The notes beneath the pieces were generated by a model. That model was not told where the DNA came from, did not search any database, and saw only the letters and a list, made by a program, of their open reading frames with translations. A stretch of DNA of 64,000 nucleotides from Polyangia bacterium (GTDB taxonomy: Bacteria; Myxococcota_A; Polyangia; Nannocystales; Nannocystaceae): assembly GCA_030424595.1 (NCBI GenBank), contig JAUHWG010000011.1:129130-193129 (forward strand). Reading direction: 5' to 3'. How positions within the stretch are numbered: position 1 is the stretch's first letter; every line of letters starts with the position of its first letter. Of this stretch, positions 7,127-55,326 are shown piece by piece. The position numbers and the translations under genes are program-made.

Positions 7127-7302
7127 GGCGGTCGAAGGCCGCTCCGAGGTCGCATCGCGGTGTTGCGGGGTTTGATCGGGCGGCTTATGCTGGGTCCCGG
7201 CCGCGGCCCCCAGTCGCTGCCGACCTTGTTCAGCACCCGACGCGGAGCAGACGCCCTGACCAGCGGTTGCCCGTGACTTGACCTGCGGAAGTGAGTTAAT
7301 CC

Positions 7303-7938
7303 ATGCGAGTTGTTTCCGGTGCGCCGATCCCCGACTGGGCGGCGCTTGAGACTGCATTTGAGCACAACGCACCTGACACCCATAGCTATCTCGATCTCGA
7401 GACTGGCCAGGTAGTCCAGGTCGTCGACTCGAGGCCGGAGGACGAAGAGAAGCGGACGATGATCCGCTCGAGCGGGAGCCGCTACGTCCATCTGGACCCT
7501 GCCTCCTCTCGTGAGCAGTACCGGTGGATGGAGCGCTTCGTCGCCTCCGTCGAGGACGGGACGCTCAAGGAGCGGCTCATCCTCGCGATCGACGGCAAGG
7601 GCGCCTTTCGCCGCTTTAAGGACGTGCTGCTCTCGTACCCGGTCGAGCGCGACCGGTGGTTTGCCTACCGTGCGAACCTCCTTCACATCTACATCGATTC
7701 CTGGTTGGAGCCCCGCGACGTCGCCCTCGGCGAGAACCCGCCGTGGGGAGATCCCCAACCGCCCGCGGAGCCCGACGTGCCCCTAGAAAAACCAATTGGT
7801 GAGCGAGGCGAAGGCCCGACGGAGACCCTCCGTCGCGAAGCTCGTGATCTGATCGAGCAGATGCCCGCCCTCGAGCTGCCGGCGGCGATCGCCTACATGA
7901 CCTTCTTGATAGAGCGTAAACCGACGCTCAGCGAGTGA
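7303..7938 (+). CDS. UPF0158 family protein
   Basis: Conserved UPF0158 blocks: YLDLETGQV, EQYRWMERFV, AIDGKGAFRRFKDVLLSYPVERDRWF. Its first codons and the 160 nt upstream have noticeably lower GC than the surroundings. Confidence 0.7.
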   Translation: MRVVSGAPIPDWAALETAFEHNAPDTHSYLDLETGQVVQVVDSRPEDEEKRTMIRSSGSRYVHLDPASSREQYRWMERFVASVEDGTLKERLILAIDGKGAFRRFKDVLLSYPVERDRWFAYRANLLHIYIDSWLEPRDVALGENPPWGDPQPPAEPDVPLEKPIGERGEGPTETLRREARDLIEQMPALELPAAIAYMTFLIERKPTLSE

Positions 7939-11233: not shown

Positions 11234-12652
11234 ATGCCCGTCTCGACCCTCTCAGGCCTCCTCCTCGCCCTTTGGGTAGCGGATCCCTTCAGCTATTCCT
11301 ACAACAGCCAGACCGACCCCAGCGGCGGCGCCGAGGTTGTGCTCAAGGCCAACGAAGACATCGGCGCATTCGAGGTCAAGATCAAGGGCGGCAAGAAGGT
11401 CGTCCAAAAGTCGGTCCCCGGTCTGAAGGCGGGGCAGACCTACAAGGTGCAATGGGTCCAGGGAGCGGAGCGGGTCGCCTACGACATGTCGATCGAGGGC
11501 GCGATCTCCGGGAGCGGCTCCTTTGAGGTCATGCGGCCCTCGGCGGCGAAGACGGTCGGCGGCGGCAAGATCGAGGCGCTCTTCGGGATCAACGACGTCC
11601 GCGAGCGCAAGGTCGCCTACCGGGTCCCCTTTGACCTGGAGAGCTACACGTTCACGGTCTTCGACACCGACGGCAACGTTCTCTCCAAGGACGAGGGCGG
11701 CGGCGGCAACAAGGCCGGTGATCGCCTCTCTCTGCGCTGGGACAGCGACGCGGAGGTGTTCATGGTCAAGCTCGAGGTGGTCGGCACCGCGGGGCAGACC
11801 GCCGAGGACATCAAGGTCACCTGGTCGGTCGACATCCCCCACACGAACATCAAGTTCGACAGCGGCAAGGCGGTGATCCGCGGCGATCAGGAGAAGTTCG
11901 TCGAAGAGGCGGCGATCATCGCGATGTACGAGCTCGCCGGGCTCGAGAAGACCAACAAGGCGGTCGGCGCCAACCTCACGGCGCAGCTCTACATCGTCGG
12001 CTACACCGACACCGTCGGCAAGGCCTCCGACAACAAGCGCCTCAGCGAAGGCCGGGCCAAGGCGATCGCGCAGTACTTCAAGAAGAAGGGCGTCTGGTGC
12101 GAGATCTACTACGCCGGCATGGGCGAGTCGGGCCTCCTGGTCAAGACCGACGACAACGTCGACGAGGAGCGCAACCGTCGGGCCGCGTACATCCTCGGGC
12201 CGCAGAAGCCGGCGGCCGGCGGCCCCATCCCGGGGAAGTGGAAGAAGGCCGCAGAGGCCGGCGCACGCCCCTCGGGCGAGCTGCCCCCCTATCCTGAGAA
12301 GTATCGCGAGGAGCGGGATCGTCGGAAGTACGGGACCAAGGGTGGGGGCTCTTCGTCGAGCGACTCGGGGTCGGGCGGCTCTGGCGGCTCTGGCGGTTCT
12401 GGTGGCGGCTCCGGTTCGGCCCCGAGCGATGACAGCGATGACTACAGCTACTCCGCCGGTAGCGATGGCTACGACGAGAGCTCCTCCTACGACGGCGATG
12501 AGTCGCCCGGTGAGGTCGAGGGCAAGCCCGGCGCGACCGCCAAGGGCTGCTCGGTCGCCGACGACTACGACGGGACCTTGGCTATCGGTCTCCTCGCCGG
12601 CCTCTGGGGCTTCGCTCGGCGACGGCGGACCCGCGTAGCGCAACGGACCTAG
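11234..12652 (+). CDS. OmpA-family protein with a C-terminal MYXO-CTERM sorting tag
   Basis: OmpA_C block LYIVGYTDTVGKASDNKRLSEGRAKAIAQYF. A Gly/Ser-rich linker follows. The C-terminus GCSVADD...AIGLLAGLWGFARRRR is a Cys + hydrophobic + Arg tail, which is the MYXO-CTERM pattern. GGAG sits 9 nt upstream of the ATG at 11234. The ORF track starts at the TTG at 11219. Confidence 0.8.
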   Translation: MPVSTLSGLLLALWVADPFSYSYNSQTDPSGGAEVVLKANEDIGAFEVKIKGGKKVVQKSVPGLKAGQTYKVQWVQGAERVAYDMSIEGAISGSGSFEVMRPSAAKTVGGGKIEALFGINDVRERKVAYRVPFDLESYTFTVFDTDGNVLSKDEGGGGNKAGDRLSLRWDSDAEVFMVKLEVVGTAGQTAEDIKVTWSVDIPHTNIKFDSGKAVIRGDQEKFVEEAAIIAMYELAGLEKTNKAVGANLTAQLYIVGYTDTVGKASDNKRLSEGRAKAIAQYFKKKGVWCEIYYAGMGESGLLVKTDDNVDEERNRRAAYILGPQKPAAGGPIPGKWKKAAEAGARPSGELPPYPEKYREERDRRKYGTKGGGSSSSDSGSGGSGGSGGSGGGSGSAPSDDSDDYSYSAGSDGYDESSSYDGDESPGEVEGKPGATAKGCSVADDYDGTLAIGLLAGLWGFARRRRTRVAQRT

Positions 12653-12700
12653 TCGTCCCGCGCAGCGCAACGGACCGAGTCGTCCCGCGCAACGGACCGG
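12638..12700 (+). repeat. 27-bp tandem repeat (~2.5 copies) made of the last codons plus stop of the OmpA-family gene (gcgcaacggaccTAGtcgtcccgcgca)
   Basis: Copy 1 contains the gene's TAG stop. Copy 2 has GAG at that position. Copy 3 is truncated. Confidence 0.8.
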
Positions 12701-17403: not shown

Positions 17404-19608
17404 TCACATGTTGTTGATGTACTGGATCGCGATCTCGCAGTACGGGTTGATCTCGATCGCGCGCTCAAAGCTCTCGCGGGCGCTGTCGGTGGCGCCGAGG
17501 CCGAGGAGCACCGCGCCGCGATAGGCGTGGACGAGATCGAGCTCCGGCTCCCGCTGCTCTGCGTACGCGAGCAGATCGAGGGCGTCCTGGGCGGCCGCGG
17601 GGTTGCCTCCTGCGGCGCGGTAGCGGGAGAAGGCGAGGGCCGCGTGGAGGACGGCGACGTCGTAGCCGTTTTGGTAGGCGTCCTCGAAGAGCGCCGAGGC
17701 CGAGGCGTAGTCCCCCTCGTTCATCGCCGCGACCGCGTCCTGGTAGCGAGCGCCGCCGATGTCGCCGCTCTCCTCGTCGACCGCGAGATCATCGAAGTCG
17801 AGGTTCGCGAGATCGTCCAGGTCGTCGTCGGAGATGCCCTTGTCGTCGAGGTCGACGTCGCCGAGGTCGACGTCGCCGAGGTCGACTTCGCCGAGGTCGA
17901 TGTCGTCGAGGTCGATGTCGTCGAGGTCGCCCAGGTCGATGTTGTCGTCGAGGTCCCCGAGCTCTTCGTTGAGGTCGTCGATGTCATCGCCGATGTCGCC
18001 GAGGTCGATGTCGTCGAGGTCGATGTCGTCGACCTCCACATCCTCGACGACCTCCTCGATCATGCTGACCTCGTCGAACTCGTCGAGGGTGCTGACCTCG
18101 GCGATGTCGTCGTCGACGTCCGCGAGATCGGGGAGCTCGTCGATCCCGGAGAGGTCGTCCAGATCGATCGCGTCGACCTCCTCGAGGGCGGAGAGCTCGT
18201 CGATCGGGATCGCCTCGATCGAGTCCTCCGGGGACGGGGCCGCGGGCGCCGGTTCGGGCTCGGGCTCGGGCTCGGGCTCGGGGAGCGCGAGGTCATCGAT
18301 GTCGCTGAGGTCGAGATCGTCGAGGTCGGGGAGGTCGTCGATGTCGCCGAGGTCGAGGTCCTCGACCGGGAGGTCCTCGAGGTCGGGTAGGTCCTCGACC
18401 ATCTCGACCTCGTCGACCATCTCGACCATCTCTTCGTCGTCGAGGAGCTCGACCTCGTCGTCAAAGCTCTCCTCGTCGAGGTCGAGGAGCGAGCCGTCGA
18501 GCGTCGTCGGCTCCTCGCGGATGGCGGGCTCCTCGTCGAGATCGCTGAAGTCGGACTCGTCGCCTTGGGTCTGGGCCTGGGAGAGCTTCTCGGCGCGGCG
18601 CACCTTGGCCCGGAGGTCGCGGGTGTCGAGGACGACGCTCTCGTCCTCGTCGAGGGCCGCGACGCCGGCGAACATCTCCTCGTCTTCGGTGAGGAGGGCG
18701 GGCATCCGCGAGGTCGACTGGGCCGCGGAGGGCAGGCGGCTGGGCAGGGGAGTGTCCTCGTACTCGCCGATGACGCTCGCAGGCTCGAAGTCCGGCGCGA
18801 GGTCGGCGTCGTCGAGCCCCTCGGGCTGGAGCTCGGGCTTTTTGGGCTTGGGTCGGGCGAGGAGGCGGCGGGTCTTGAGATCGACCACACCTGCGGCGAT
18901 GAGCCCGTAGAGCAGGGTCGCGGTCCGGGGGACGGGGAGGTCGAGCTCGCCGCTCAGGAGCTCGTCGACGCTGCGGCTGCCGTCGAGACCCTGCAGGACG
19001 TACACCTCTTCCGGGATCAGCTCTAGGGGATCCGCGTTGCTCGTCCAGGCCGGCACCGCGACCGGATACTTGCCGGCGAAGGGGCGGAGCGCGTGACGTG
19101 CTCGGTCGTCGGAGTAGCGCGACTGGATCGCCGAGATGATGATGTTCTCGTTGCACTCGCTGGGCGGCGCCTCGCCCGTGTCGTCGCCGCCGGGCTTGAA
19201 CTGAAAGCGTCCCTCCTCCCACGAGAAGATGTCGCCGAGCTTGCCGCGAAACTGGGCGTCGAGGCCGTACTGGAGGTTGCCCTCGGAGATGAGGCCCATC
19301 TCGATGAGGAGCTCGCCCTGCTTCTTGCCGGTGCGGCGCACCGCCTCGAGGGAGTTGTCGCTCTGCTCTTGGGTGATCAGCCCCTCAGACGCCAGGATCT
19401 GGCCGAGACACTCGGAGATCACGTTGGAGCGCACGGAGACCGGCTTGCCGGCGCGGAAGAAGATGACCTTCTTCGTCTGTCCGTTGAGCAAGTAGAGGCT
19501 GCCGGTGACCTCGGCGCGTGCGATCTGCCGGATCAGCTGGGGAAAGGGGATGCGCTTGAGCGACCCCTTGGTCGGAAACCCTGATTCGGTGTCGGCATGC
19601 TCGGTCAT
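17404..19608 (-). CDS. DUF4388 (PATAN-like) domain protein with a ~230-aa hyper-acidic repetitive linker and a C-terminal TPR-like domain
   Basis: N-terminus LKRIPFPQLIRQIARAEVTGSLYLLNGQTKKVIFFRAGKPV matches the DUF4388 pattern. The central region is ~60% Asp/Glu/Leu/Ile, with 15-18-bp in-frame DNA repeats encoding (D/E)(L/I)(G/D)D(V/I)D units. C-terminal TPR-like helices. Confidence 0.7.
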   Translation of the reverse strand: MTEHADTESGFPTKGSLKRIPFPQLIRQIARAEVTGSLYLLNGQTKKVIFFRAGKPVSVRSNVISECLGQILASEGLITQEQSDNSLEAVRRTGKKQGELLIEMGLISEGNLQYGLDAQFRGKLGDIFSWEEGRFQFKPGGDDTGEAPPSECNENIIISAIQSRYSDDRARHALRPFAGKYPVAVPAWTSNADPLELIPEEVYVLQGLDGSRSVDELLSGELDLPVPRTATLLYGLIAAGVVDLKTRRLLARPKPKKPELQPEGLDDADLAPDFEPASVIGEYEDTPLPSRLPSAAQSTSRMPALLTEDEEMFAGVAALDEDESVVLDTRDLRAKVRRAEKLSQAQTQGDESDFSDLDEEPAIREEPTTLDGSLLDLDEESFDDEVELLDDEEMVEMVDEVEMVEDLPDLEDLPVEDLDLGDIDDLPDLDDLDLSDIDDLALPEPEPEPEPEPAPAAPSPEDSIEAIPIDELSALEEVDAIDLDDLSGIDELPDLADVDDDIAEVSTLDEFDEVSMIEEVVEDVEVDDIDLDDIDLGDIGDDIDDLNEELGDLDDNIDLGDLDDIDLDDIDLGEVDLGDVDLGDVDLDDKGISDDDLDDLANLDFDDLAVDEESGDIGGARYQDAVAAMNEGDYASASALFEDAYQNGYDVAVLHAALAFSRYRAAGGNPAAAQDALDLLAYAEQREPELDLVHAYRGAVLLGLGATDSARESFERAIEINPYCEIAIQYINNM

Positions 19609-31440: not shown

Positions 31441-31624
31441 GCGGCAGCGCTCGCTGCGATGAGCTCGACCGGCGAAGGTCGGGGTCGACGGAAGAGGCGG
31501 CTCGGGCGAATGCCCCTGCCGCCTCTGCTTTGGTTCTTGTGGTTCTTGTCCTCTCGTCGCGATGAGTCGCGGCCGTGGCTGGACGAGATCGATCCCAGGC
31601 GGCACGAGCGAAGCTCAGGCCGGA

Positions 31625-31745
31625 CAGGGGCAGAACAGGGGCAGAACAGGGGCAGAACAGGGCCGGAACAGGGCCGGAACAGGGCCGGAGCAGGGCCGGA
31701 ACAGGGCCGGAGCAGGGCCAGAACAGGGTCAGATCGGCGGAGTCT
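31625..31745. repeat. Minisatellite: ~10 units of 12 bp (cagggGcagaac / cagggccggaac / cagggccggagc)
   Basis: Read directly from the sequence. It is intergenic, between convergent genes. The ORFs across it are repeat translations. Confidence 0.85.
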
Positions 31746-36911: not shown

Positions 36912-38606
36912 ATGTCGTCGATCCTGATCATTGATGACGAGGACAACTACCTCGAGCTTTGCCGGCGATATATGCCGGAGCACGACTTTCTCCCGCCTGC
37001 GCGGAGCTATCGGGACGCCGCGGCGGTGCTCCGTCAACGGGCTCAGGAGATCGATCTCGTCCTCCTGGACGTCCACTTCAACATCGACGAGGAGGAGCTG
37101 CTCCCCGCCGACAAGGCGCCGCTCTTCGCCCGCAGTGATCGCCGCCGGGTGCTGGATCGTCTCTGTCGGACCCAGGGATTGCTCATTCTCGATCGGATCC
37201 GCGCCGATTACCCCGATCTGCCGCTCATCGTGATGACCTCGCGGGATGATCTCCCGCTCGAGGTCGACGCGGAGCGCCTCCACGCTGAGGATTACACCTA
37301 CCTCCTCGATGACGATTACCTCGACGCTCGCTCTCTGCGATTGCAGATTGAGGGGATCCTCGCCCGTCGGGAGCGCCCATCGGCGGAGGAGAGCGGCCCC
37401 TTCTATTGGGGGACGACCCCGGCGATGCTCAACCTCCGCCGCCGCCTCTCGATCCTCGCCCGCGGTCGCCTGCCGATCATCGTCCAGGGCGCCACCGGCA
37501 CCGGCAAGAGCCTGGTCGTCCGCGAACATGTCCACCCGCACTCGCGGCGCTCCGGGCCCTTCGTCGCGGTCGATCTGTCGACGATCCCCAGCGATCTGAT
37601 GGCGGCGCATCTCTTCGGCGTGACCAAGGGCGCCTACACTGGGGCGACGAGCTCCCGCGACGGCGTTCTCGCCCAGGCCGACGGCGGTACGCTCTTTCTC
37701 GACGAGATCGGCAACCTCAGCCTCGAGCTGCAAAAGTCGCTGCTCCTCGTCCTTCAGGAGGGGAGCTACCGTCCGGTCGGCTCCGTCAAGGAGCGCAGCG
37801 TCGACATCAAGCTGGTGGTCGCGACCAACGAGGATCTCGCGACGCTGGTCCGCGAGGGTCGCTTTCGCGAAGACCTCTACATGCGCCTCAACCCCGCGAC
37901 CGCGGTGACGCTCGCGAGCCTCGCCGACCGCCGCGACGACTTCCACGAGCTCTTGAAGTTCTTCGTCCGCAGGGTCGCCTCCGAGGCCTACAACCGCGAT
38001 CTCGTCCTCCAGTACGCCGAGCAGCGGGGGTTGATGCTGCCGAGCGGGAAGGGACCGCTGCCGGTGAGCGTTGGTTCGACGGTGCCCACGCGCTCCGACA
38101 GCACGCGGATCCATTTCCTCTTCCACCCCAGCTCCCTCAAGCTGCTGCGCGGGTTCGACTGGCCGGGGAATTTTCGCCAGTTCGAGATGACCCTGTCCAA
38201 CCTCGTCACCTTCACGCTGGTCGAGCTGGTCGAGCGGGCGTCGCAGGTCGAGCCCGAGGATCCGGGGCAGGCGAGCCGCCCGGACGTCATCCCGATCCCG
38301 GCGAAGACGGTCAACGATCTCCTGCGGCCGATGGCGAAGGCCCATCGTCGCGAGAGCGACGTGCCTGTCGATGAGGGCGAGGGCCGTCCCGTCGGAGTGC
38401 GGGTCTGCTCCGCAGACTCCCTCAACGCGGTCTCCTGCGCCGTCGAGCGGCAGTACCTGGAGGCGCTCTACCGCGACAGCGACGGCGATCTCGGGCAGAT
38501 GGGCCTGTGGCTCCTCGACAATGACGGGGCAGGGCGGAAGATCCAGCTGCGGATGAACCAGCTCGGGATCAAGCTGCGCTCGCTGAAGCGCAAGCGGGGA
38601 GATTGA
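36912..38606 (+). CDS. Sigma-54-dependent transcriptional regulator (atypical N-terminal receiver-like domain, AAA+ sigma-54 interaction domain, C-terminal Fis-type HTH)
   Basis: ILIIDDE...LVLLDVHF receiver-like. Walker A GATGTGKS. GAYTGA (GAFTGA equivalent). GGTLFLDEIG. C-terminal RKIQLRMNQLGIKLRSLKRK Fis-type HTH. Confidence 0.85.
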   Translation: MSSILIIDDEDNYLELCRRYMPEHDFLPPARSYRDAAAVLRQRAQEIDLVLLDVHFNIDEEELLPADKAPLFARSDRRRVLDRLCRTQGLLILDRIRADYPDLPLIVMTSRDDLPLEVDAERLHAEDYTYLLDDDYLDARSLRLQIEGILARRERPSAEESGPFYWGTTPAMLNLRRRLSILARGRLPIIVQGATGTGKSLVVREHVHPHSRRSGPFVAVDLSTIPSDLMAAHLFGVTKGAYTGATSSRDGVLAQADGGTLFLDEIGNLSLELQKSLLLVLQEGSYRPVGSVKERSVDIKLVVATNEDLATLVREGRFREDLYMRLNPATAVTLASLADRRDDFHELLKFFVRRVASEAYNRDLVLQYAEQRGLMLPSGKGPLPVSVGSTVPTRSDSTRIHFLFHPSSLKLLRGFDWPGNFRQFEMTLSNLVTFTLVELVERASQVEPEDPGQASRPDVIPIPAKTVNDLLRPMAKAHRRESDVPVDEGEGRPVGVRVCSADSLNAVSCAVERQYLEALYRDSDGDLGQMGLWLLDNDGAGRKIQLRMNQLGIKLRSLKRKRGD

Positions 38607-38645
38607 TGTTGGGGGCGCTCTACCTCGATGGCGGCGATCTCGGGC

Positions 38646-38727
38646 CCTTGCGCCTGTGGCCCCAGCTGTCGGCGAACCAGGTCGGGAGTGGGCTGCGCTC
38701 GTCGCAGCGCGAGCGGGGAGCTTGATG
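38646..38727 (+). repeat. Degenerate second copy (~80% identical) of the last ~80 nt of the sigma-54 regulator gene, including a stop-equivalent; it is intergenic
   Basis: 38553-38606 (..atgaaccagctcgggatcaagctgcgctcgctgaagcgcaagcggggagattga) versus 38672-38724 (..gcgaaccaggtcgggagtgggctgcgctcgtcgcagcgcgagcggggagcttga). Read in the same frame this gives LRSSQRERGA* versus LRSLKRKRGD*. Confidence 0.7.
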
Positions 38728-41661
38728 TCTCGGGCGATGCAGCTCGCCGCCGCGCTGTGGCTCGTCGCAGGGACCGCCAGCGCAGCGCCGCCGGAGAGTC
38801 CCGGCTTCTCGCTGCCGCGGCCGCCAGCCCTGGAGGGCGACACCGAGGGGACGTCCGGGACCGACTCCGACACAGGTGAGGAGATCGATCCCGAGGTGCT
38901 CCAGGAGCAACGCCAGCTCGAGTTCGATCTTCACCTCTTCCGCGCTCAGCGGCTTGAGCGTGAGGGGAAGATCGACGACGGTATCCGCGAGTACACGGCC
39001 GCGCTCAAGCTCCAGTCGGGCGATCCCGGGGCTCTCCGCGGCCGGGCCAAGCTCCGGTTCAAGCGCACCCGCAAGGGGCAGTGTCCGCGCCGGGCGATCG
39101 AGGATCTCCGGCTGCTGCGGCTCTACGATCCCGCGGGGACGTGGAACGAAGAGCGGGCGACGATCCTCGAGTGGATGGCGCTCTGCGAAGATCGCTACCG
39201 TCGCGAGCGCCTCGACCTCGCGCTGGAGCTCGGCGAAGACGATCCGGCGGCGAGCTATCGGCCGCCGGGGATCCGCTACACGATCGCCGCGCTCCAGACG
39301 GAAGAGGCGGAGCGGGCGGGCCCCGGGCGCGACGGCCAGGAGCTCCGCGACGCCGCGCTTCTCCAGCTCGAGCGCTATCGTCAGGAGTGTTCAGAGGGGG
39401 GACGCCGGCCGAAAGCGGCGGCGCTTAGCCTCCAGGCCGACCTCTATCGCGCCCGGGGGGACATCTCCGAGGCGATCGCGGTCTATCGCGAGTTGGTCGC
39501 GCTCCACCCCGGTGTGCCGGCGGCGGCCGAGGCTGAGCGGGTCGTCGCCGAGCTCCAGCTCGAGGTCGAGCTCACCCGCTTAGAGAAGGAGCAGGGCGGG
39601 CGACCGTCGGAGCGGGCGGAGGCCAGCTACCGGATCGCGGCGGTCGCCCTGCGGCGCGGAGAGCTCGCGAGCGCGGAGGCTGAGCTGCGCAAGGCGATCG
39701 ACGACTCGCCGTGGTTTCCGAAGGCCCACTACCTGCTCGGGCTCGTCCACGCCAAGACGCGCCGCTTCACCGACGCCGTCGAGGAGCTGAAGATGGCGGT
39801 CCGGATGGACCGCTACGACCACGAGGCGCACATCGCCCTTGGTCTGCTCTACAAGAAGGAATTCTCCGGCGCCGAGGATGCCGCGGCGATCGAGCACCTC
39901 GAGCGAGCGCTGGTCCTGCGGCCGGACCTGAACAACCTCCACCTCCTCTTGGGCGAGCTCTACGCCCGCAGCGATCGCGATCTGGCCCGTCGTCACTACG
40001 AGCAGTTTCTCCAGCGGGCAGGCGAGGATGATCCCGATCGGGGCTTCGCCGAGGGGGCGCTGCAAAACCTCAGCCATGAGCTGCGGGTGGAGGAGCCTCT
40101 CTTTGAGATCCAGCCGCCCAGCGATCTGAGGCGCCTCGATCCTGGTCTGCAGAGGATGATCAACGAGGCCTACCTTCGCCACGAGGACGACGAGGACTGG
40201 GCCCAGGCCGAGCGGATCCTCGAGGCGGCGCGGGCCAAGTACCCGGATGAGCCCCAGGTGCTCAACGAGCTGGCGATGGTCGCCTACGCGGACGGTCGTC
40301 CCGGCGATGCTCGACAGTTTTGGGAGCAGAGCCTGGTCATGGACGCGGAGCAGGTCGACGTCCACGAGCGCCTCGGGATCCTCCTGGCGAGCGAGCTGCC
40401 GGAGCAGGCGATAGGCCACCTCGAGCGGGCTGCGGCGCTCGGGTCGAGCAACGCGCGCTTTCGCCTGGCGTCGCTGATGTGGGCGGAGAACGACCTCTTT
40501 CGCGCCTCGGACGTGCTCGATCGCTACCTCGGCGAGGCCGGGCCCTACGATCTCTACTGGGATCGGGCGCAGGTCCTCCGCGAGCGGATGGACCGGCTCT
40601 TCTTTCGGGTCTACCTGATCGCCGGCGGCGTTCTCCTCATCCTCCTGCTGATCCCGGCGGGGATGGTCTTCCGTCGCCTCCGCGGAGCCTCGCTAGAGCA
40701 GCTCTTGGCCCGCGCGCCGAAGTCCTTCCCGGAGGTCGCCCGGATCCTCTCGCTCATCCGCCACGAGATCCTCAAGCACAACACCGCCTTCCTCATCGAC
40801 GTCGGCCGCGCGCTCGAGTTCGACGAGCCGGACGCCGAGGTGCGGGCGGCGATCGTCGCCCGCAGGCTCTTCGGCGACAGCGATGAGCGGCGGCGCAAGG
40901 CGGCGGATCTGCGGATCGCGTCGAGCCGTGACCAGGGGATCTACGGCCGCTTTCTCGGCTACGTCGAGGAGCTGCAGAAGGTCGCGCGGACCCACGGGGT
41001 CACCCTCAACCTCTACCGCAAGGACCCGATCTTCTCGCCGATGATCCGCGCCTTCGAGGATCTGCGCGAGCTCGGAGATCTCCAGCGTCGCGGGAGCGAT
41101 CATCGCAGCCGCAAGCTCGACCTCGCGCAGCGGCTGACCCGCTCCGGTCATGAGCTCGGCCGGCGGGCGTTCGAGCGCCTCAGCTCGCTCATCCAGTCGC
41201 TCTGCGTCGTCGACGTGACGCCGACGATGATCCGCGAGGTCTTCGGCCTCGTCGCGGCCGAGTCCCACTTCGCCCAGGCGAAGATCGCCGACGTGGCCGT
41301 GGTGGGGGAGGGGGCGCAGATCCGGGTGTTTCGCACCGATCTGGAGGACATCCTGACCAACGTGCTCCGCAACTCGCTCCACTCGAGCGTGCTCTACGGG
41401 CCCTCGCCTGCGCAGATCGGGGTCGCCTTGAGCACCGAGGTCGATGAGATCACAGGCCTCAGCACCTTGGCCATCCGGATCCAGGATCGTTCGACCGAAA
41501 AGCTCTCCAACGAGATGCTCCGCGGCCGCTATGTTGAGCGAGGGATGGGGATTACGGTCGACCTGCTCTCGCGTTACGATGGGGCGATCGCGGTCGAGCC
41601 GGAGCCCGGGTGGGAGAAGGCCGTCGTGTTGCGCTTCTTCACCGTGGAGGACACCCCGTGA
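38725..41661 (+). CDS. Sensor histidine-kinase-like protein: signal peptide, large periplasmic TPR domain, one TM helix, cytoplasmic HisKA-like + HATPase_c
   Basis: Signal LAAALWLVAGTASA. Multiple TPR-like repeats (AHYLLGLVHAKTRRFTDAVEELKMAV, AHIALGLLYKK). TM VYLIAGGVLLILLLIPAGMVF. SLIRHEILKHN (H-box-like). LTNVLRNSLHSS (N-box). ERGMGITVDLLSRYDGAIAV (G2). Confidence 0.72.
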   Translation: MSRAMQLAAALWLVAGTASAAPPESPGFSLPRPPALEGDTEGTSGTDSDTGEEIDPEVLQEQRQLEFDLHLFRAQRLEREGKIDDGIREYTAALKLQSGDPGALRGRAKLRFKRTRKGQCPRRAIEDLRLLRLYDPAGTWNEERATILEWMALCEDRYRRERLDLALELGEDDPAASYRPPGIRYTIAALQTEEAERAGPGRDGQELRDAALLQLERYRQECSEGGRRPKAAALSLQADLYRARGDISEAIAVYRELVALHPGVPAAAEAERVVAELQLEVELTRLEKEQGGRPSERAEASYRIAAVALRRGELASAEAELRKAIDDSPWFPKAHYLLGLVHAKTRRFTDAVEELKMAVRMDRYDHEAHIALGLLYKKEFSGAEDAAAIEHLERALVLRPDLNNLHLLLGELYARSDRDLARRHYEQFLQRAGEDDPDRGFAEGALQNLSHELRVEEPLFEIQPPSDLRRLDPGLQRMINEAYLRHEDDEDWAQAERILEAARAKYPDEPQVLNELAMVAYADGRPGDARQFWEQSLVMDAEQVDVHERLGILLASELPEQAIGHLERAAALGSSNARFRLASLMWAENDLFRASDVLDRYLGEAGPYDLYWDRAQVLRERMDRLFFRVYLIAGGVLLILLLIPAGMVFRRLRGASLEQLLARAPKSFPEVARILSLIRHEILKHNTAFLIDVGRALEFDEPDAEVRAAIVARRLFGDSDERRRKAADLRIASSRDQGIYGRFLGYVEELQKVARTHGVTLNLYRKDPIFSPMIRAFEDLRELGDLQRRGSDHRSRKLDLAQRLTRSGHELGRRAFERLSSLIQSLCVVDVTPTMIREVFGLVAAESHFAQAKIADVAVVGEGAQIRVFRTDLEDILTNVLRNSLHSSVLYGPSPAQIGVALSTEVDEITGLSTLAIRIQDRSTEKLSNEMLRGRYVERGMGITVDLLSRYDGAIAVEPEPGWEKAVVLRFFTVEDTP

Positions 41662-43994: not shown

Positions 43995-44148
43995 CAGGTC
44001 TCGCGCCGCGATCGTCGGTCCGGGTCCTGGGCCTCAGGTCTCTGGGGCTGTAGCGCAGGTCTTGGCGGATCCGAGAGGGCCGAGGGCAAGAGCGCGTGGG
44101 CTCTGGCCACGGGCTAGAGATCCCGTTCGGTCTCGGTCGCCTGGTATG

Positions 44149-44200
44149 GCAGACCGGTGCAGACCGGTGCAGACCGGTGCAGACCGGTGCAGACCGGTCA
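44149..44200. repeat. Minisatellite: 5 tandem units of the 10 bp gcagaccggt
   Basis: Read directly from the sequence. It is ~150 nt downstream of the MutH-like gene. Confidence 0.85.
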
Positions 44201-44299
44201 TGGTCCCCGGTCGGCTCGTTCGCGAGCTGCGAAGCCGAGACTCCATCAACCAAAACGAGAACCCAGGACAACTGACCAAGTCGTCCTGGGTCCCCCCCC

Positions 44300-44760
44300 A
44301 GTTCTAAGTTGTTTCAGCACCGACCATGCGTAGGCGCTATCTGCGGAAAAACTATGTTCAAGCTAGCGGAAGACCAAGTTCAGGCGAAGGAGTAAGGGAA
44401 AGCCAAGATCTAGTCGTTAAGGAGGAAACGAACCGAAGTGAGGAGCGGGGGCGCTCAAGCGGTAAGCGAGCGCCGAAAGATAAGGGCAAGTCAGAAGGTA
44501 CGAAGGCGAGGCTAGGATAGAAAAGGTGCCAAGCTAGCGAACGGAAGTCTTGCAGATAGGGCCCGTCATTGACGGACAGTCCCGGTAGATGCAGACGCAG
44601 TGCCATCTTGTCAAAGTGTTGAAATTATTGAAGATGGTGTCCTGGCATTGTCCGACGTGTCCTACCCTGTGCCCTAGGTATGACTCCCATGTCATGATCC
44701 CCGCCCTGTCACGGTCGGCGCCCATGACATCGATGTCATAGCTGCGGCATCGAGGTCAGA
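44300..44760. other. Purine-rich (AG-rich) low-GC non-coding island upstream of argC
   Basis: Runs such as aaggagtaagggaaagccaag, gttaaggaggaaacgaaccgaagtgaggag, gaaagataagggcaagtcagaaggtacgaaggcgaggctaggatagaaaagg. The only ORF (44326..44520) has a GC3 pattern foreign to this genome. An AT-rich stretch tcaaagtgttgaaattattgaagatgg lies at 44611-44637. Confidence 0.6.
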
Positions 44761-45931: not shown

Positions 45932-46776
45932 GCCCGCGGGCGGTCCTCAAGATCGGCGGCGATCTGCTCTCAAGGCCGGAGGCGCTCTCGGAGGTGCTCC
46001 GCGACGTCGCCTCGCTGGTCGCTGAGGGGTGGCGCTTCGTCCTCTGTCACGGCGGTGGGCCCCAGGCCAGCGATCTTCAGGCGCGCCTCGGCATGCTGAC
46101 GCGCAAGGTCGGCGGCCGGAGGATCACCGACACGGCCACGCTTCAGGTGATGAAGCAGGTGCTCGCCGGGGAGGTGAACGTCGATCTCGTCGCGACCGCG
46201 CTGGCGGCGGGGATCGACGCGATCGGCCTCTCAGGGGTCAGCGGAGGGCTCGTGAAGGCACGACGGCGGCCTCCGATCGTCGTCAGCGGAGGGGGCGACG
46301 CGCCGATCGACTTCGGCTATGTCGGCGATGTCGTGGGCATCCGCACGGAGCTCATCGAGCATCTTTGGGCGGGCGGTTGGACGCCTGTGCTCAGCACGCT
46401 GGGGGTCGACACTGAGGCTGAGGGGGCCTCTGCGCCTGTCTTTAATATCAACGCGGATACGGTCTCGGCGGCGATCGCTGGCGCTCTGAAGGCCGATCAC
46501 CTCTTCGCGATGACCAACGTGCCTGGGGTTCTCCGCGACAAGGACGACCTGACCACTCGGATCCCGCGACTGACCTCGAGCGAGGCGAAGCGGGCGATCG
46601 CCGACGGGATCATCGTCGGCGGGATGATCCCGAAGATCGAGGAGGCGCTGCGCAACCTGGCGCGAGGTATCGGCGCGATACACATCCTCGGCGTCGGTGC
46701 GGGGGTGCTCGCGGAGGAGGCGGCGACGCCGGGCTCGCGCGGAACGGTGCTCGTCGCGGGTTCGGCGAGCGCGTAG
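45928..46776 (+). CDS. argB: Acetylglutamate kinase
   Basis: AVLKIGGDLL...FVLCHGGGPQ...NINADTVSAAIAGAL amino-acid-kinase motifs. The GTG start overlaps the argC stop (GTGA). Confidence 0.9.
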   Translation: MSPRAVLKIGGDLLSRPEALSEVLRDVASLVAEGWRFVLCHGGGPQASDLQARLGMLTRKVGGRRITDTATLQVMKQVLAGEVNVDLVATALAAGIDAIGLSGVSGGLVKARRRPPIVVSGGGDAPIDFGYVGDVVGIRTELIEHLWAGGWTPVLSTLGVDTEAEGASAPVFNINADTVSAAIAGALKADHLFAMTNVPGVLRDKDDLTTRIPRLTSSEAKRAIADGIIVGGMIPKIEEALRNLARGIGAIHILGVGAGVLAEEAATPGSRGTVLVAGSASA

Positions 46777-46928
46777 CGTGGTGCTCGCGGAGGAGGCGGC
46801 GACGCCGGGCTCGCGCGGAACGGTGCTCGTCGCGGGTTCGGCGAGCGCGTAGCGTGGTGCTCGCGGAGGAGGCGGTGGCGCCGGGCTCGCGCGGAACGGT
46901 GCTCGTCGCGGGTTCGGCGAGCGCGTAG
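46701..46928 (+). repeat. 76-bp unit present in 3 tandem copies; copy 1 is the last 76 nt of argB including TAG, and copies 2-3 are downstream
   Basis: The period is exactly 76 nt (gcgtag ends at 46776, 46852 and 46928). Copies differ at only 2-3 positions. Confidence 0.85.
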
Positions 46929-47110
46929 AGGATGCTCCCAGAGGAGACAGCGATCGCAGATCGCAGCGGGAGTGGTGGTGACCGCTGCATCCGCCTTCAA
47001 TGAGCGCTGGCATACGTTCGATTCCGCAGGGCGAGCTTGGCCCAGGGTCGGGAGCGCGTCCGTCGTCGCGACCTTCGAAGGGGCGCTCGGCGGCGTGTTA
47101 CAACCATTCC

Positions 47111-48349
47111 ATGGGTGGATCGAGCGAGCTACAGGCGGCGCTTTTGGCCGCGGTTGATGCCGTCTTTGCCAGCGAGCAGGTGCCGCAGGTCCAGCGCCTC
47201 GTCGATCAGCCGAGTCATACGTACGCCAAGGACGAGGTCGAGGCGGCCGCGGAGCTCCTCGACGGGGCTGCGGCAGCGCTCGGGCTGACGCTCCGGCGGA
47301 TCCCGGATCCCACGGGGCGTTTCGCCGATCATCGGATCTACAGCACTCCGGCGACGGAGGAGGACGGAGAGGCGCTGGCGCTCGTCGGTCACATCGACAC
47401 GGTCTTCCCGCGATCGCTCGGCTTTCTCAAGTTTGTCCGCGAGCCGGCCGACGGCGATGTGATCCGCGGTCCGGGCGTGCTCGACATGAAGTCAGGGCTG
47501 ACGGTGATCCTCTTCGCCCTGCGAGCGGTCAAGGAGGTCGACCCGGAGCGCTTTGAGCGGCTCAAGGTGCGCCTCGTCTGCGTCTCTGACGAGGAGGTGG
47601 GCTCGCCGAGCTCGGCTCGCGTCGTCTACGACGAGCTCGCGGCGAAGACCTCGGCGGCGATGGTCTTCGAGGCGGGTCGGGCCGAGGATCGGATCGTCAC
47701 CCGGCGAAAAGGGGGGGGATCCTTCACCGTGACGGCCTCCGGTCGTGCGGCTCACGCCGGCAACGACCATCGCGCGGGGCGCAACGCGATCCATGCGCTC
47801 GCCCTGCTGATCCCGCGGATCGAGGCGCTGACTGACTACGAGCGCGGGGTCACCGTCAACGTTGGGCTCATCGAGGGGGGGACCGCGAAGAACACGGTGC
47901 CGGACCGGGCGAGCTGCACCATCGACACGCGCTTCGAGACCGCGGCGGACGCCGAGGCTGTCTCGCAGGCCCTGCGCGCGCTCGCGGTGGATCCCTTCGC
48001 CGAGGTCATGTCGATGCCGGCCAAGCTGAAGGATGTGACCTTTGAGGTCAGCGGCGGAGTGACGCGGCCGCCGATGGAGTCGACGCCGGCGACCCAGCGC
48101 CTGCGCGAGCTCTACGAGCGACATGCGGCTGCTGTAGGGCTTCAGGTCGGCGAGGCGCCCCTCCAAGGGGGGGGCTCCGACGCCAACCTCCTGGCGGCTC
48201 AGGGGGTCCCGTGCATCGACGGGCTGGGCCCCGCCGGTCGCTACTACCATCGCGTGGAGGAGTGGAGCAGCCTCGGCAGCCTCCGCCGCCGGACCCAGGC
48301 GCTCGCGCTCTTTCTCGCCCTTGAGGATCCCGGGTCAATTCGTGACTAG
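47111..48349 (+). CDS. M20-family metallopeptidase/deacylase (ArgE/DapE/CPG2-like); possibly acetylornithine deacetylase given the arg context
   Basis: LALVGHIDTVFP metal-binding His/Asp block, DMKSGL and GGSDANLL. ATG at 47111. Confidence 0.78.
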   Translation: MGGSSELQAALLAAVDAVFASEQVPQVQRLVDQPSHTYAKDEVEAAAELLDGAAAALGLTLRRIPDPTGRFADHRIYSTPATEEDGEALALVGHIDTVFPRSLGFLKFVREPADGDVIRGPGVLDMKSGLTVILFALRAVKEVDPERFERLKVRLVCVSDEEVGSPSSARVVYDELAAKTSAAMVFEAGRAEDRIVTRRKGGGSFTVTASGRAAHAGNDHRAGRNAIHALALLIPRIEALTDYERGVTVNVGLIEGGTAKNTVPDRASCTIDTRFETAADAEAVSQALRALAVDPFAEVMSMPAKLKDVTFEVSGGVTRPPMESTPATQRLRELYERHAAAVGLQVGEAPLQGGGSDANLLAAQGVPCIDGLGPAGRYYHRVEEWSSLGSLRRRTQALALFLALEDPGSIRD

Positions 48350-48354
48350 CGGCC

Positions 48355-48646
48355 CGTGTCGAAAGTCCCGTGTGCTCTCGCGCCGCAATCGTCGGCCCTC
48401 TTGGCTTCGACGAAACGCCGCTGTACCGGGCCGTACCGCAAGTTTCGGCGGGGCCGAGAGGGCCGACGAGGGCAAGCGAGAGTGCGCGGGACTCTTGCCA
48501 CGGTCTGCTAGAGGCCCGCAGCGTGGCGAAGATCGGGCCTAGGCTCGATCTGCGAGGCCGGACGTGCCAGGTTGGGGGCGCGGGACTTTTGCCACGGTGC
48601 CGTTGGCTGTCCGGGCTTGCCCGGCTACTTTCGACGTGCGAAAACC
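48355..48646. repeat. ~290-bp non-coding element bounded by an imperfect inverted repeat (cgtgtcgaaagt ... actttcgacgtg); it contains two 21-bp direct repeats (gcgcgggactcttgccacggt / gcgcgggacttttgccacggt)
   Basis: Read directly from the sequence. It is somewhat lower in GC and lies between the M20 gene stop and the CNNM-type gene start. Confidence 0.6.
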
Positions 48647-53673: not shown

Positions 53674-54093
53674 GTGACCTTCCGCTGGCCAGAGGCGGTC
53701 GGGGAGCGACTGTCTCTGACCTGGGAGGGGGAGGGGACTACGTCGGCGATGGTCGAGTCCGCGGCCGAGCGCTACTTCGAGCTCACCGGAGTGCTCGCAG
53801 CGGCCGACACTCTCGGCGTCGGTCCGGCGCTCAACCGCCGCACGGAGCGCGGCGGCCTCGGGGTGCTCGTCGGACCCGCGGAGGTCAGCGTCGAGATCGT
53901 CGGCCTCGGCCGACGGTGCGCGGTGATGGTGGTCGAGTGGCCTGCCGAGCAGGGCTCGGGGCGGGCCGAGCTCATCTGGTGCTGGCGAGACTCGGGGGGG
54001 CGTGCGGTGAGGATCCCGGAGGCCGCGAGGATCGGAATCCTCGCGCTCGATGGTCCGCGGCTCCCGGTCGCGCAGCGGCTCCCGGTCGCGTAG
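53674..54093 (+). CDS. Hypothetical protein; the last 18 nt are tandemly duplicated in-frame (RLPVAQ-RLPVA-stop)
   Basis: GTG start 10 nt after the Yip1-like stop. High GC3. cggctcccggtcgcgCAG / cggctcccggtcgcgTAG at 54058-54093. Confidence 0.4.
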   Translation: MTFRWPEAVGERLSLTWEGEGTTSAMVESAAERYFELTGVLAAADTLGVGPALNRRTERGGLGVLVGPAEVSVEIVGLGRRCAVMVVEWPAEQGSGRAELIWCWRDSGGRAVRIPEAARIGILALDGPRLPVAQRLPVA

Positions 54094-54135
54094 CGGCGCC
54101 GGGCGTAACGCGTCGTGACTGGGGGCGCGGCGGGC

Positions 54136-54864: not shown

Positions 54865-55326
54865 GCTTCTCTCCAGGGGACCAGCGGCAAGCATGGACCC
54901 GGACGGCTCGAGATTCCAGCCCGCACAGGCCGGTGACGGGAGCGGTCCGCGGTCGGTGGCGCGGCGATCCATGGAGACGATCGAGACCAGGACCTGAGGT
55001 CGACGAGGAGCTGCGAGATGCCCGATCGGGCGGTGCTGCGTGGTCGGGCGCCGCGATCCCAGCGATGGCCGGCGCCAGCTTCGGTCACGCACGGCGAGAT
55101 CGCCGATCGTTCATTGATCGACGTCTCGCGGTCATCCGTCCGGCGGTGGGCGCTCCCCGGCAGCCCCTGCGTTGGCGCGGTGATCGAGCCATCGTCGGTG
55201 ACGCCTCGGTACGCCCGTCTTCGCCGAGGAGGGGTCGTGGCGGTCCGTCGGCGTCGGCGCGCGGTGGGGGAAAGGAGGGCGTCGGACGCCCGTGGGGCCG
55301 GCGCCGCTGGGTTATAGTCAGCGCCG

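Follow-up and report, generated by a model that had tools for sequence, protein, structure and literature searches.

A tandem array in which the last 76 nt of argB recur head to tail, stop codon included, was characterized in a 64-kb stretch of DNA from a Nannocystaceae lineage (the window, that is, the whole stretch that was analysed). The array is very probably a locus-specific non-coding minisatellite (VNTR) that arose and changed in length through tandem duplication of the slipped-strand or microhomology-mediated type and is tolerated, most likely without function. It looks like a new member of a well-known kind, an ordinary bacterial minisatellite for which no new mechanism is needed, and the apparently triplicated gene end with three stop codons would then be an ordinary polymorphic minisatellite, a clean negative. 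The repeat is confined to one species-level lineage and is polymorphic within it, copy number differing among closely related strains.

Tandem repetition of the argB 3' end

Direct reading, TRF and a repeat search agree on three 76-nt copies, arranged head to tail with exact 76-nt spacing (Table 1). TRF returned a single array at 46704-46953 (period 76, 3.3 copies, 93% matches, 0 indels) with a score of 437, the highest of the whole window by a wide margin; so exact an array lies far outside what chance would give. In the TRF register, copy 1 (46704-46779) and copy 2 (46780-46855) match at all 76 nt (100%), and copy 3 was 95% identical in the repeat search, with two internal substitutions, C-to-T and A-to-G in adjacent codons, and a last 3 nt that are flank. 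A GGTGCTCG..CGCGG motif occurs twice inside the 76-nt unit, and it is for this reason that TRF also gave sub-periods of 42 and 34 nt.

Table 1. Position of argB, its repeat copies, the downstream gene and the other repeat-bearing gene ends (window coordinates).
Feature	Position	Strand	Remarks
argB (acetylglutamate kinase), 282 aa	45928..46776	+	TIGR00761, E=1e-54, above cut-off
Repeat copy 1	46701..46776	+	argB 3' terminus: last 24 codons and functional stop TAG 46774-46776
Repeat copy 2	46777..46852	+	non-coding; own terminal TAG
Repeat copy 3	46853..46928	+	non-coding; two clustered substitutions (GCGGCGACG -> GCGGTGGCG); ends in TAG
Degenerate in-register partial fourth copy	46929..~46957	+	AGGATGCTCCCAGAGGAGACAGCGATCGC versus unit start CGTGGTGCTCGCGGAGGAGGCGGCGACGCC
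Remainder of argB-M20 spacer	46958..47093	+	common to strain L018; unalignable to more distant relatives
CGTGTTACAA motif	47094..47103	+	7 nt upstream of M20 start codon
M20-family (ArgE/DapE-like) metallo-hydrolase gene	47111..48349	+	ATG 47111 placed by conservation with relatives
27-nt repeat, about 2.8 copies	12630-12699		functional TAG 12650-12652 in copy 1
Tandem duplication, sigma54-activator gene 3' end	38458-38609 and 38610-38728		unit ~152 nt; copy 2 with ~33-nt deletion
In-frame 18-nt (6-codon) repeat	54057-54097		C-terminal coding region of 143-aa protein, no assigned function

TRF carries the array on to 46953, into a partial fourth copy that matches at 20/25 positions in the window and includes an exact 12-mer, TGCTCGCGGAGG, at the equivalent stretch of strain L018. 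The score of this alignment alone is not significant, being reached by 21/300 shuffles, and a partial copy is claimed because the match is in register in two strains, and only for its first ~25-29 nt. It is an old copy that has been cut short or, alternatively, the distal microhomology arm. A full ancient fourth copy reaching further into the flank, as suggested by MAFFT, was rejected when local alignment proved not significant (21/300 and 36/300 shuffles).

The GTG start of argB (45928) overlaps the TGA stop of argC (TIGR01850, 4e-100). Close ArgB homologues all finish 0-10 residues past the conserved PGSRGTVLV motif, indicating that the TAG closing copy 1 is the natural argB stop. The 76-bp tandem triplication of the argB end and its stop codon, first described in a sequence-only reading, is borne out by TRF and the repeat search (100% identity for one pair, two substitutions in the third copy), as is the non-coding status of the downstream copies, since translation halts at the first TAG and 76 is not a multiple of 3. 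The same reading had supposed that a single slippage event would alter the ArgB C-terminus; this is essentially mistaken, because the last 24 codons and the stop lie entire within every unit, and adding or removing units in register therefore restores an unchanged C-terminus. The sole possible change to ArgB is a swap of at most two residues, the tripeptide AAT becoming AVA, if the two substitutions of copy 3 reached the first copy.

From argB to the M20 gene the spacer measures 334 nt, of which ~181 nt are repeat-derived, in a window with a G+C content of 68.7%. The CGTGTTACAA motif is kept as a box, CGTGYTACAA, 7-9 nt upstream of the M20 start in L001, L002, L018, L020 and L022, all relatives with at least 81% ArgB identity, and its conservation places the proximal signals of the downstream gene beyond the array. 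The box resembles an extended -10 element (TGnTAcAAn) in a position that would suit a leader that is very short or lacking altogether. The flanking argC, M20 hydrolase and CNNM transporter genes are syntenic housekeeping genes in all relatives.

Elsewhere in this neighbourhood, a perfect 10-nt x5 array of GCAGACCGGT lies at 44149-44198, in the long spacer upstream of argC; it is absent from the L023 counterpart (7290-7360) and is thus another strain-variable repeat. Next to it, at 44200-44750, about 500 nt of markedly lower G+C without a convincing ORF separate an unannotated gene from argC; this stretch gave no Rfam or tRNA match, and strain L023 likewise has a ~770-nt gap here. Between the M20 stop and the CNNM gene lies a ~169-nt MITE-like element (48346-48514) whose terminal inverted repeats are imperfect and ~36 nt long (CTAGCGGCCCGTGTCGAAAGTCCCGTGTGCTCTCGC ... 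GCGAGAGTGCGCGGGACTCTTGCCACGGTCTGCTAG). A second copy of it, inverted and 92% identical (L023:18016-18183), is present in the 97%-identical strain, and the matching site in the window (~54932-55001) is empty, an insertion polymorphism. Fragments of MITE-like ends also occur at ~48577-48597 and ~44075-44120, and one MITE-like end, searched with 3 mismatches allowed, matched only itself.

Distribution and copy number among related strains

A scan of the genome collection with ArgB gave Nannocystaceae and other Myxococcota as the closest relatives, with closer ones present in the protein database. Comparison of orthologous argB 3' regions, as had been proposed, located the array in two further strain assemblies, L019 and L018/L023, and found no copies of the argB end in relatives at 81-91% ArgB identity, namely L001 and L002 (both 81%; argB-M20 spacers of 60 and 54 nt), L022 (86%; 198 nt) and L020/L021 (91%; 127 nt). 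The L020 outgroup also has no clear arm following its argB stop. L019 (JGI 3300036763; 99.1% nucleotide identity) has two full copies followed by the same flank, and its contig ends inside the spacer; the two copies are a lower bound. In L018/L023 (ENA ERZ23497160; ~97% nucleotide identity) the spacer is 413 nt long and holds units of 77, 77, 52 and 108 nt, after which comes a partial copy. All three assemblies have this partial copy in register. Copy number, counted in assemblies rather than reads, is 3.3 in the window, at least 2.3 in L019 and about 5, decayed, in L018/L023.

The L018 units each end in GGCGAGCGCGTAG and carry substitutions, indels and internal deletions or fusions; units have lost 25-37 nt, or have fused, without the structure being restored. 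Copies 3 and 4b of this strain have common derived changes, indicating that copies which had already diverged were duplicated a second time as the array grew. No copy, not even the decayed ones of L018, departs from the terminal 13-mer GGCGAGCGCGTAG, although the shared ancestry of L018 copies 3 and 4b means that this invariance rests on fewer independent observations. In one strain the repeat has had time to decay, and in another it has recently re-expanded; the latest expansion is recent, since copies 1 and 2 show no difference although the strains are 1-3% apart. Short-read assembly may collapse such identical copies or miscount them, and the exact copy numbers are therefore provisional. 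As a marker for typing strains of this uncultured Nannocystaceae lineage the locus could be of small practical value, and the array is equally a warning of possible mis-assembled copy number.

Repeats at other gene ends in the window

Recurrence of such duplications at no fewer than four gene ends had been put forward on the sequence-only reading. This holds for argB and for the sigma54-activator gene, both of which are genuine duplications; it does not hold for the repeat at 54057-54097, and the four sites are heterogeneous. At the sigma54-activator gene the last ~150 nt have been duplicated in tandem, a real event though an older one. The duplicated stretch takes in the TGATG overlap between this gene's stop and the start of the next gene, its first unit ends 3 nt past the TGA, and the TPR-protein gene downstream now starts from the second copy; it is common to strain L023, where the spacer is 103 nt versus 119 nt. 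In the 27-nt repeat at 12630-12699, two TAGs of copy 1 correspond to CAG and GAG in copy 2, the GAG standing at the position of the functional stop, and a canonical hairpin plus TTTT terminator follows directly. The product of this gene ends in a hydrophobic stretch plus RRRR, which may be a putative C-terminal sorting signal. At 54057-54097 the window reads TAG where the sister strain L023 (17095-17147) reads TCG, with four residues removed as a result, and the repeat is absent in the outgroup L024; the stop is thus a point (nonsense) mutation rather than a duplicated stop.

A predicted stop codon is contained in 3 of the 28 TRF arrays of the window, versus 1.06 expected under random placement (P=0.079; GC3-based gene map, permutation), and the scan of the 64-kb window thus gave no significant enrichment of repeats at stop codons. 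Arrays with a TRF score of at least 50 and a period not divisible by 3 all lie outside ORF interiors (10390, 31618, 44149, 46704), and those of the same score within ORFs all have periods divisible by 3. This placement is the signature of purifying selection filtering where duplications survive, and selection against ORF-disrupting duplications explains the recurrence at stop codons. For a 76-nt duplication, non-disruptive placements that span a stop should be about as numerous as those lying wholly inside a typical spacer, so that stop-spanning survivors are expected.

Other repeats were also seen. An 11-nt unit (ACAGGGSCRGA) occurs ~10 times with a 22-nt higher-order period at 31602-31744, between two convergent genes. 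At 17774-18460, 9/15/27-nt periodic repeats rich in GTCGAC/GAGGTC lie inside a 734-aa minus-strand ORF, where they probably encode an acidic D/E/L-rich low-complexity region. In one spacer of a Nannocystaceae relative (L005:6842-7075) a 41-nt unit that includes a palindrome, GGGAGTTCCCGGACCGGGGGACTCCAAATCCCAAACTTAGCG, occurs four times, with a 21-nt x2 repeat set between its copies; this arrangement was considered as another gene-end duplication and rejected as an intergenic palindromic repeat. An 18-nt x2 tandem repeat with a TAG in each copy begins at the argB stop of L003 (4873-4908), an unrelated MAG labelled Planctomycetia whose ArgB is 61% identical.

Origin of the array and comparison with known repeat systems

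In blastn searches of the window and ~195 kb of related loci the 76-nt unit was found only at the argB locus and at orthologous argB ends, and not at many loci as for a MIRU- or REP-like interspersed family. A pattern scan of metagenomes for the copy junction gave 0 matches, and a looser pattern gave 2, both of them unrelated chance matches. Rfam gave no match at the gathering threshold over the whole window and, near the locus at E<=1, one chance-level match inside argB (E=0.44); ARAGORN returned no tRNA. Neither a sigma70-like promoter nor an intrinsic terminator was detected at 46400-47300, and the hairpin into which the 76-nt unit folds has no T-run such as an intrinsic terminator would have. 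This hairpin (-43.9 kcal/mol) is marginally better than shuffles (z=-1.9; 10/200 shuffles fold as well). Across 9 distinct copies from three strains, a sample of low power, 0 compensatory pairs were found, and 87% of hairpin cells were paired versus 86.9% in shuffles. As in minisatellites or VNTRs, the unit is repeated head to tail, falls in the range of roughly 10-100 bp and varies in copy number between strains.

These properties are most readily accommodated by a minisatellite in which a segment of argB, its final ~76-77 nt up to the stop codon or just past it, would have been duplicated in tandem. The process was probably slipped-strand mispairing, or else template switching mediated by microhomology, between short repeats rich in GC. 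Candidate short repeats are the GGTGCTCG..CGCGG motif and a TGCTCGCGGAGG-like motif right after the array. Full units followed by an in-register partial unit are the pattern expected of slipped-strand or microhomology-mediated tandem duplication, and the slippage-type origin suggested earlier fits the data. GC-rich long microhomology pairs strongly favour tandem duplication, reportedly raising its rate by orders of magnitude, and the resulting duplications expand and revert readily (PMC8639346). Once two copies were present, the array could expand, contract and decay by slippage or unequal recombination, and such resizing would have produced the 2.3, 3.3 and about 5 copies of the three strains. 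It would persist because the duplicated segment includes the stop codon and the first copy therefore encodes intact ArgB, leaving the extra copies as untranslated spacer upstream of the conserved proximal motif of the M20 gene. The array is most likely without function; it lengthens the spacer (334 nt versus 54-198 nt in repeat-less relatives) and, from the predicted folding, most likely adds GC-rich hairpins to any read-through transcript. The absence of detectable constraint points to neutrality, and by analogy with ETR-F upstream of fpg1 (PMC2734929) an effect of spacer length or of the hairpins on M20 gene expression may occur.

Two alternatives concern whether the copies are real and whether they do anything. 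An assembly artefact, in which a single real argB 3' end was multiplied by the assembler, for instance from strain variants in a metagenome, could draw on the identity of copies 1 and 2, on an array (228+ nt) exceeding typical short reads, and on the two substitutions of copy 3, which could be a misplaced strain variant. It is very unlikely as the origin, however, given that two other assemblies, independent in sample and pipeline, have tandem copies at the same place with differing copy numbers and decay states, that the independently decayed copies of L018 are nothing an assembler would invent, and that all three assemblies contain the in-register partial copy. A functional cis-element is unlikely but the least improbable of the alternatives. 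Repeated GC-rich hairpins in the argB-M20 spacer would here tune expression, with copy number as a tunable knob of the kind proposed for some mycobacterial VNTRs, and could do so by stabilising the argB 3' end, attenuating read-through or setting the M20 level. The long hairpin of each unit, the position of the array between two co-oriented arginine-pathway genes and the invariance of the terminal 13-mer are all compatible with such a role, for which the correlation of repeat length with fpg1 mRNA level at ETR-F, upstream of fpg1, provides a precedent (PMC2734929). The hairpin is nevertheless barely above same-composition shuffles and shows 0 compensatory substitutions, the L018 units have lost 25-37 nt, or have fused, without restoration of structure, neither a U-tract terminator nor a promoter match was found, relatives function without the repeat, and the M20 gene has a conserved proximal motif of its own, retained on the far side of the array.

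The remaining alternatives invoke special processes at gene ends. In one of them, transcription or translation termini, or replication conflict at gene ends, would preferentially trigger template switching; in its favour are the tandem repeats at three or four gene ends in 64 kb and the position of the first unit, which ends 0-3 nt past the stop in both long cases. Under random breakpoints a first-unit end so near the stop is mildly unlikely, with a probability of roughly 0.002-0.05 depending on boundary treatment, in a test chosen after the data had been seen, and where an array runs on into a partial copy the limits of its units can be drawn in more than one way. The non-significant enrichment, sites unlike in unit length, age and nature (one being an in-frame coding repeat plus a point mutation) and the occurrence of intergenic and stop-adjacent repeats in unrelated relatives all weigh against a mechanism of this kind, and a survivorship model based on coding density predicts that about half of surviving 76-nt duplications would span a stop in any case. 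The special mechanism at transcription/translation termini raised in the earlier reading is thus highly improbable. Its lineage-specific form, in which duplications in these Nannocystaceae arise preferentially with the distal breakpoint at or a few bases past stops, is a very doubtful proposition as well; if true, it would mean termination-coupled template switching rather than random slippage filtered by selection. A literature search for tandem duplication spanning stop codons as a described phenomenon gave only general VNTR, MIRU and MTD work. Duplication of att sites by an integrative element and the activity of a diversity-generating retroelement (DGR) each yield a second copy of a gene 3' terminus downstream of the gene, and the argB copies might on that ground be attL/attR remnants or a DGR template/variable repeat pair. 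Their anatomy effectively refutes both: no element DNA separates the copies, which follow one another in perfect head-to-tail order, they number three or more and vary, their differences are C-to-T and A-to-G rather than adenine-specific as for a DGR, and the flanking genes are syntenic in all relatives. Such a remnant was rejected and has practically no chance of being correct.

The minisatellite reading carries a more general expectation. Selection on the protein does not see a tandem duplication that takes in a stop codon, and gene ends would accordingly accumulate such duplications; survivorship at gene ends is therefore the null model to be considered before a termination-linked mechanism is invoked.

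Among known repeats, REP/BIME sequences resemble the argB unit in being GC-rich, hairpin-capable and positioned, within an operon spacer, just past a stop codon. REPs form dispersed families of high copy number whose members often alternate in orientation, whereas the argB unit is coding-derived and occurs at a single locus in direct orientation. The mycobacterial interspersed repetitive units (MIRU), as far as the account in PMC2734929 that cites Supply et al. 1997, 2000 describes them, are likewise 40-100 bp tandem units in operon spacers, overlap flanking stop and start codons and vary between strains; in that account they form one sequence family over ~41 loci, whereas the argB unit occurs only at the argB locus within the window and ~195 kb, the other repeats of the window being unrelated in sequence. 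In microhomology-mediated tandem duplications (MTD), a segment between two short GC-rich direct repeats becomes repeat-segment-repeat-segment-repeat and shows high rates of reversion and expansion (PMC8639346), an anatomy that the distal in-register partial copy of the argB array would fit if it is such an arm. MTDs have been characterised mainly in yeasts, as subclonal and mostly deleterious events within genes (PMC8639346), in contrast to the fixed, multi-copy and intergenic argB array.

The likeness extends furthest to ETR-F (VNTR3239) in the rnc-fpg1 spacer, where the M. tuberculosis complex has 279-358 bp of variable repeats versus 1-54 bp in other mycobacteria (PMC2734929). In both cases head-to-tail units of tens of bp lie between co-oriented genes of a GC-rich genome, in one narrow lineage only, with a short spacer in relatives and with copies and unit structure that vary between strains. 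[quoted passage not shown]
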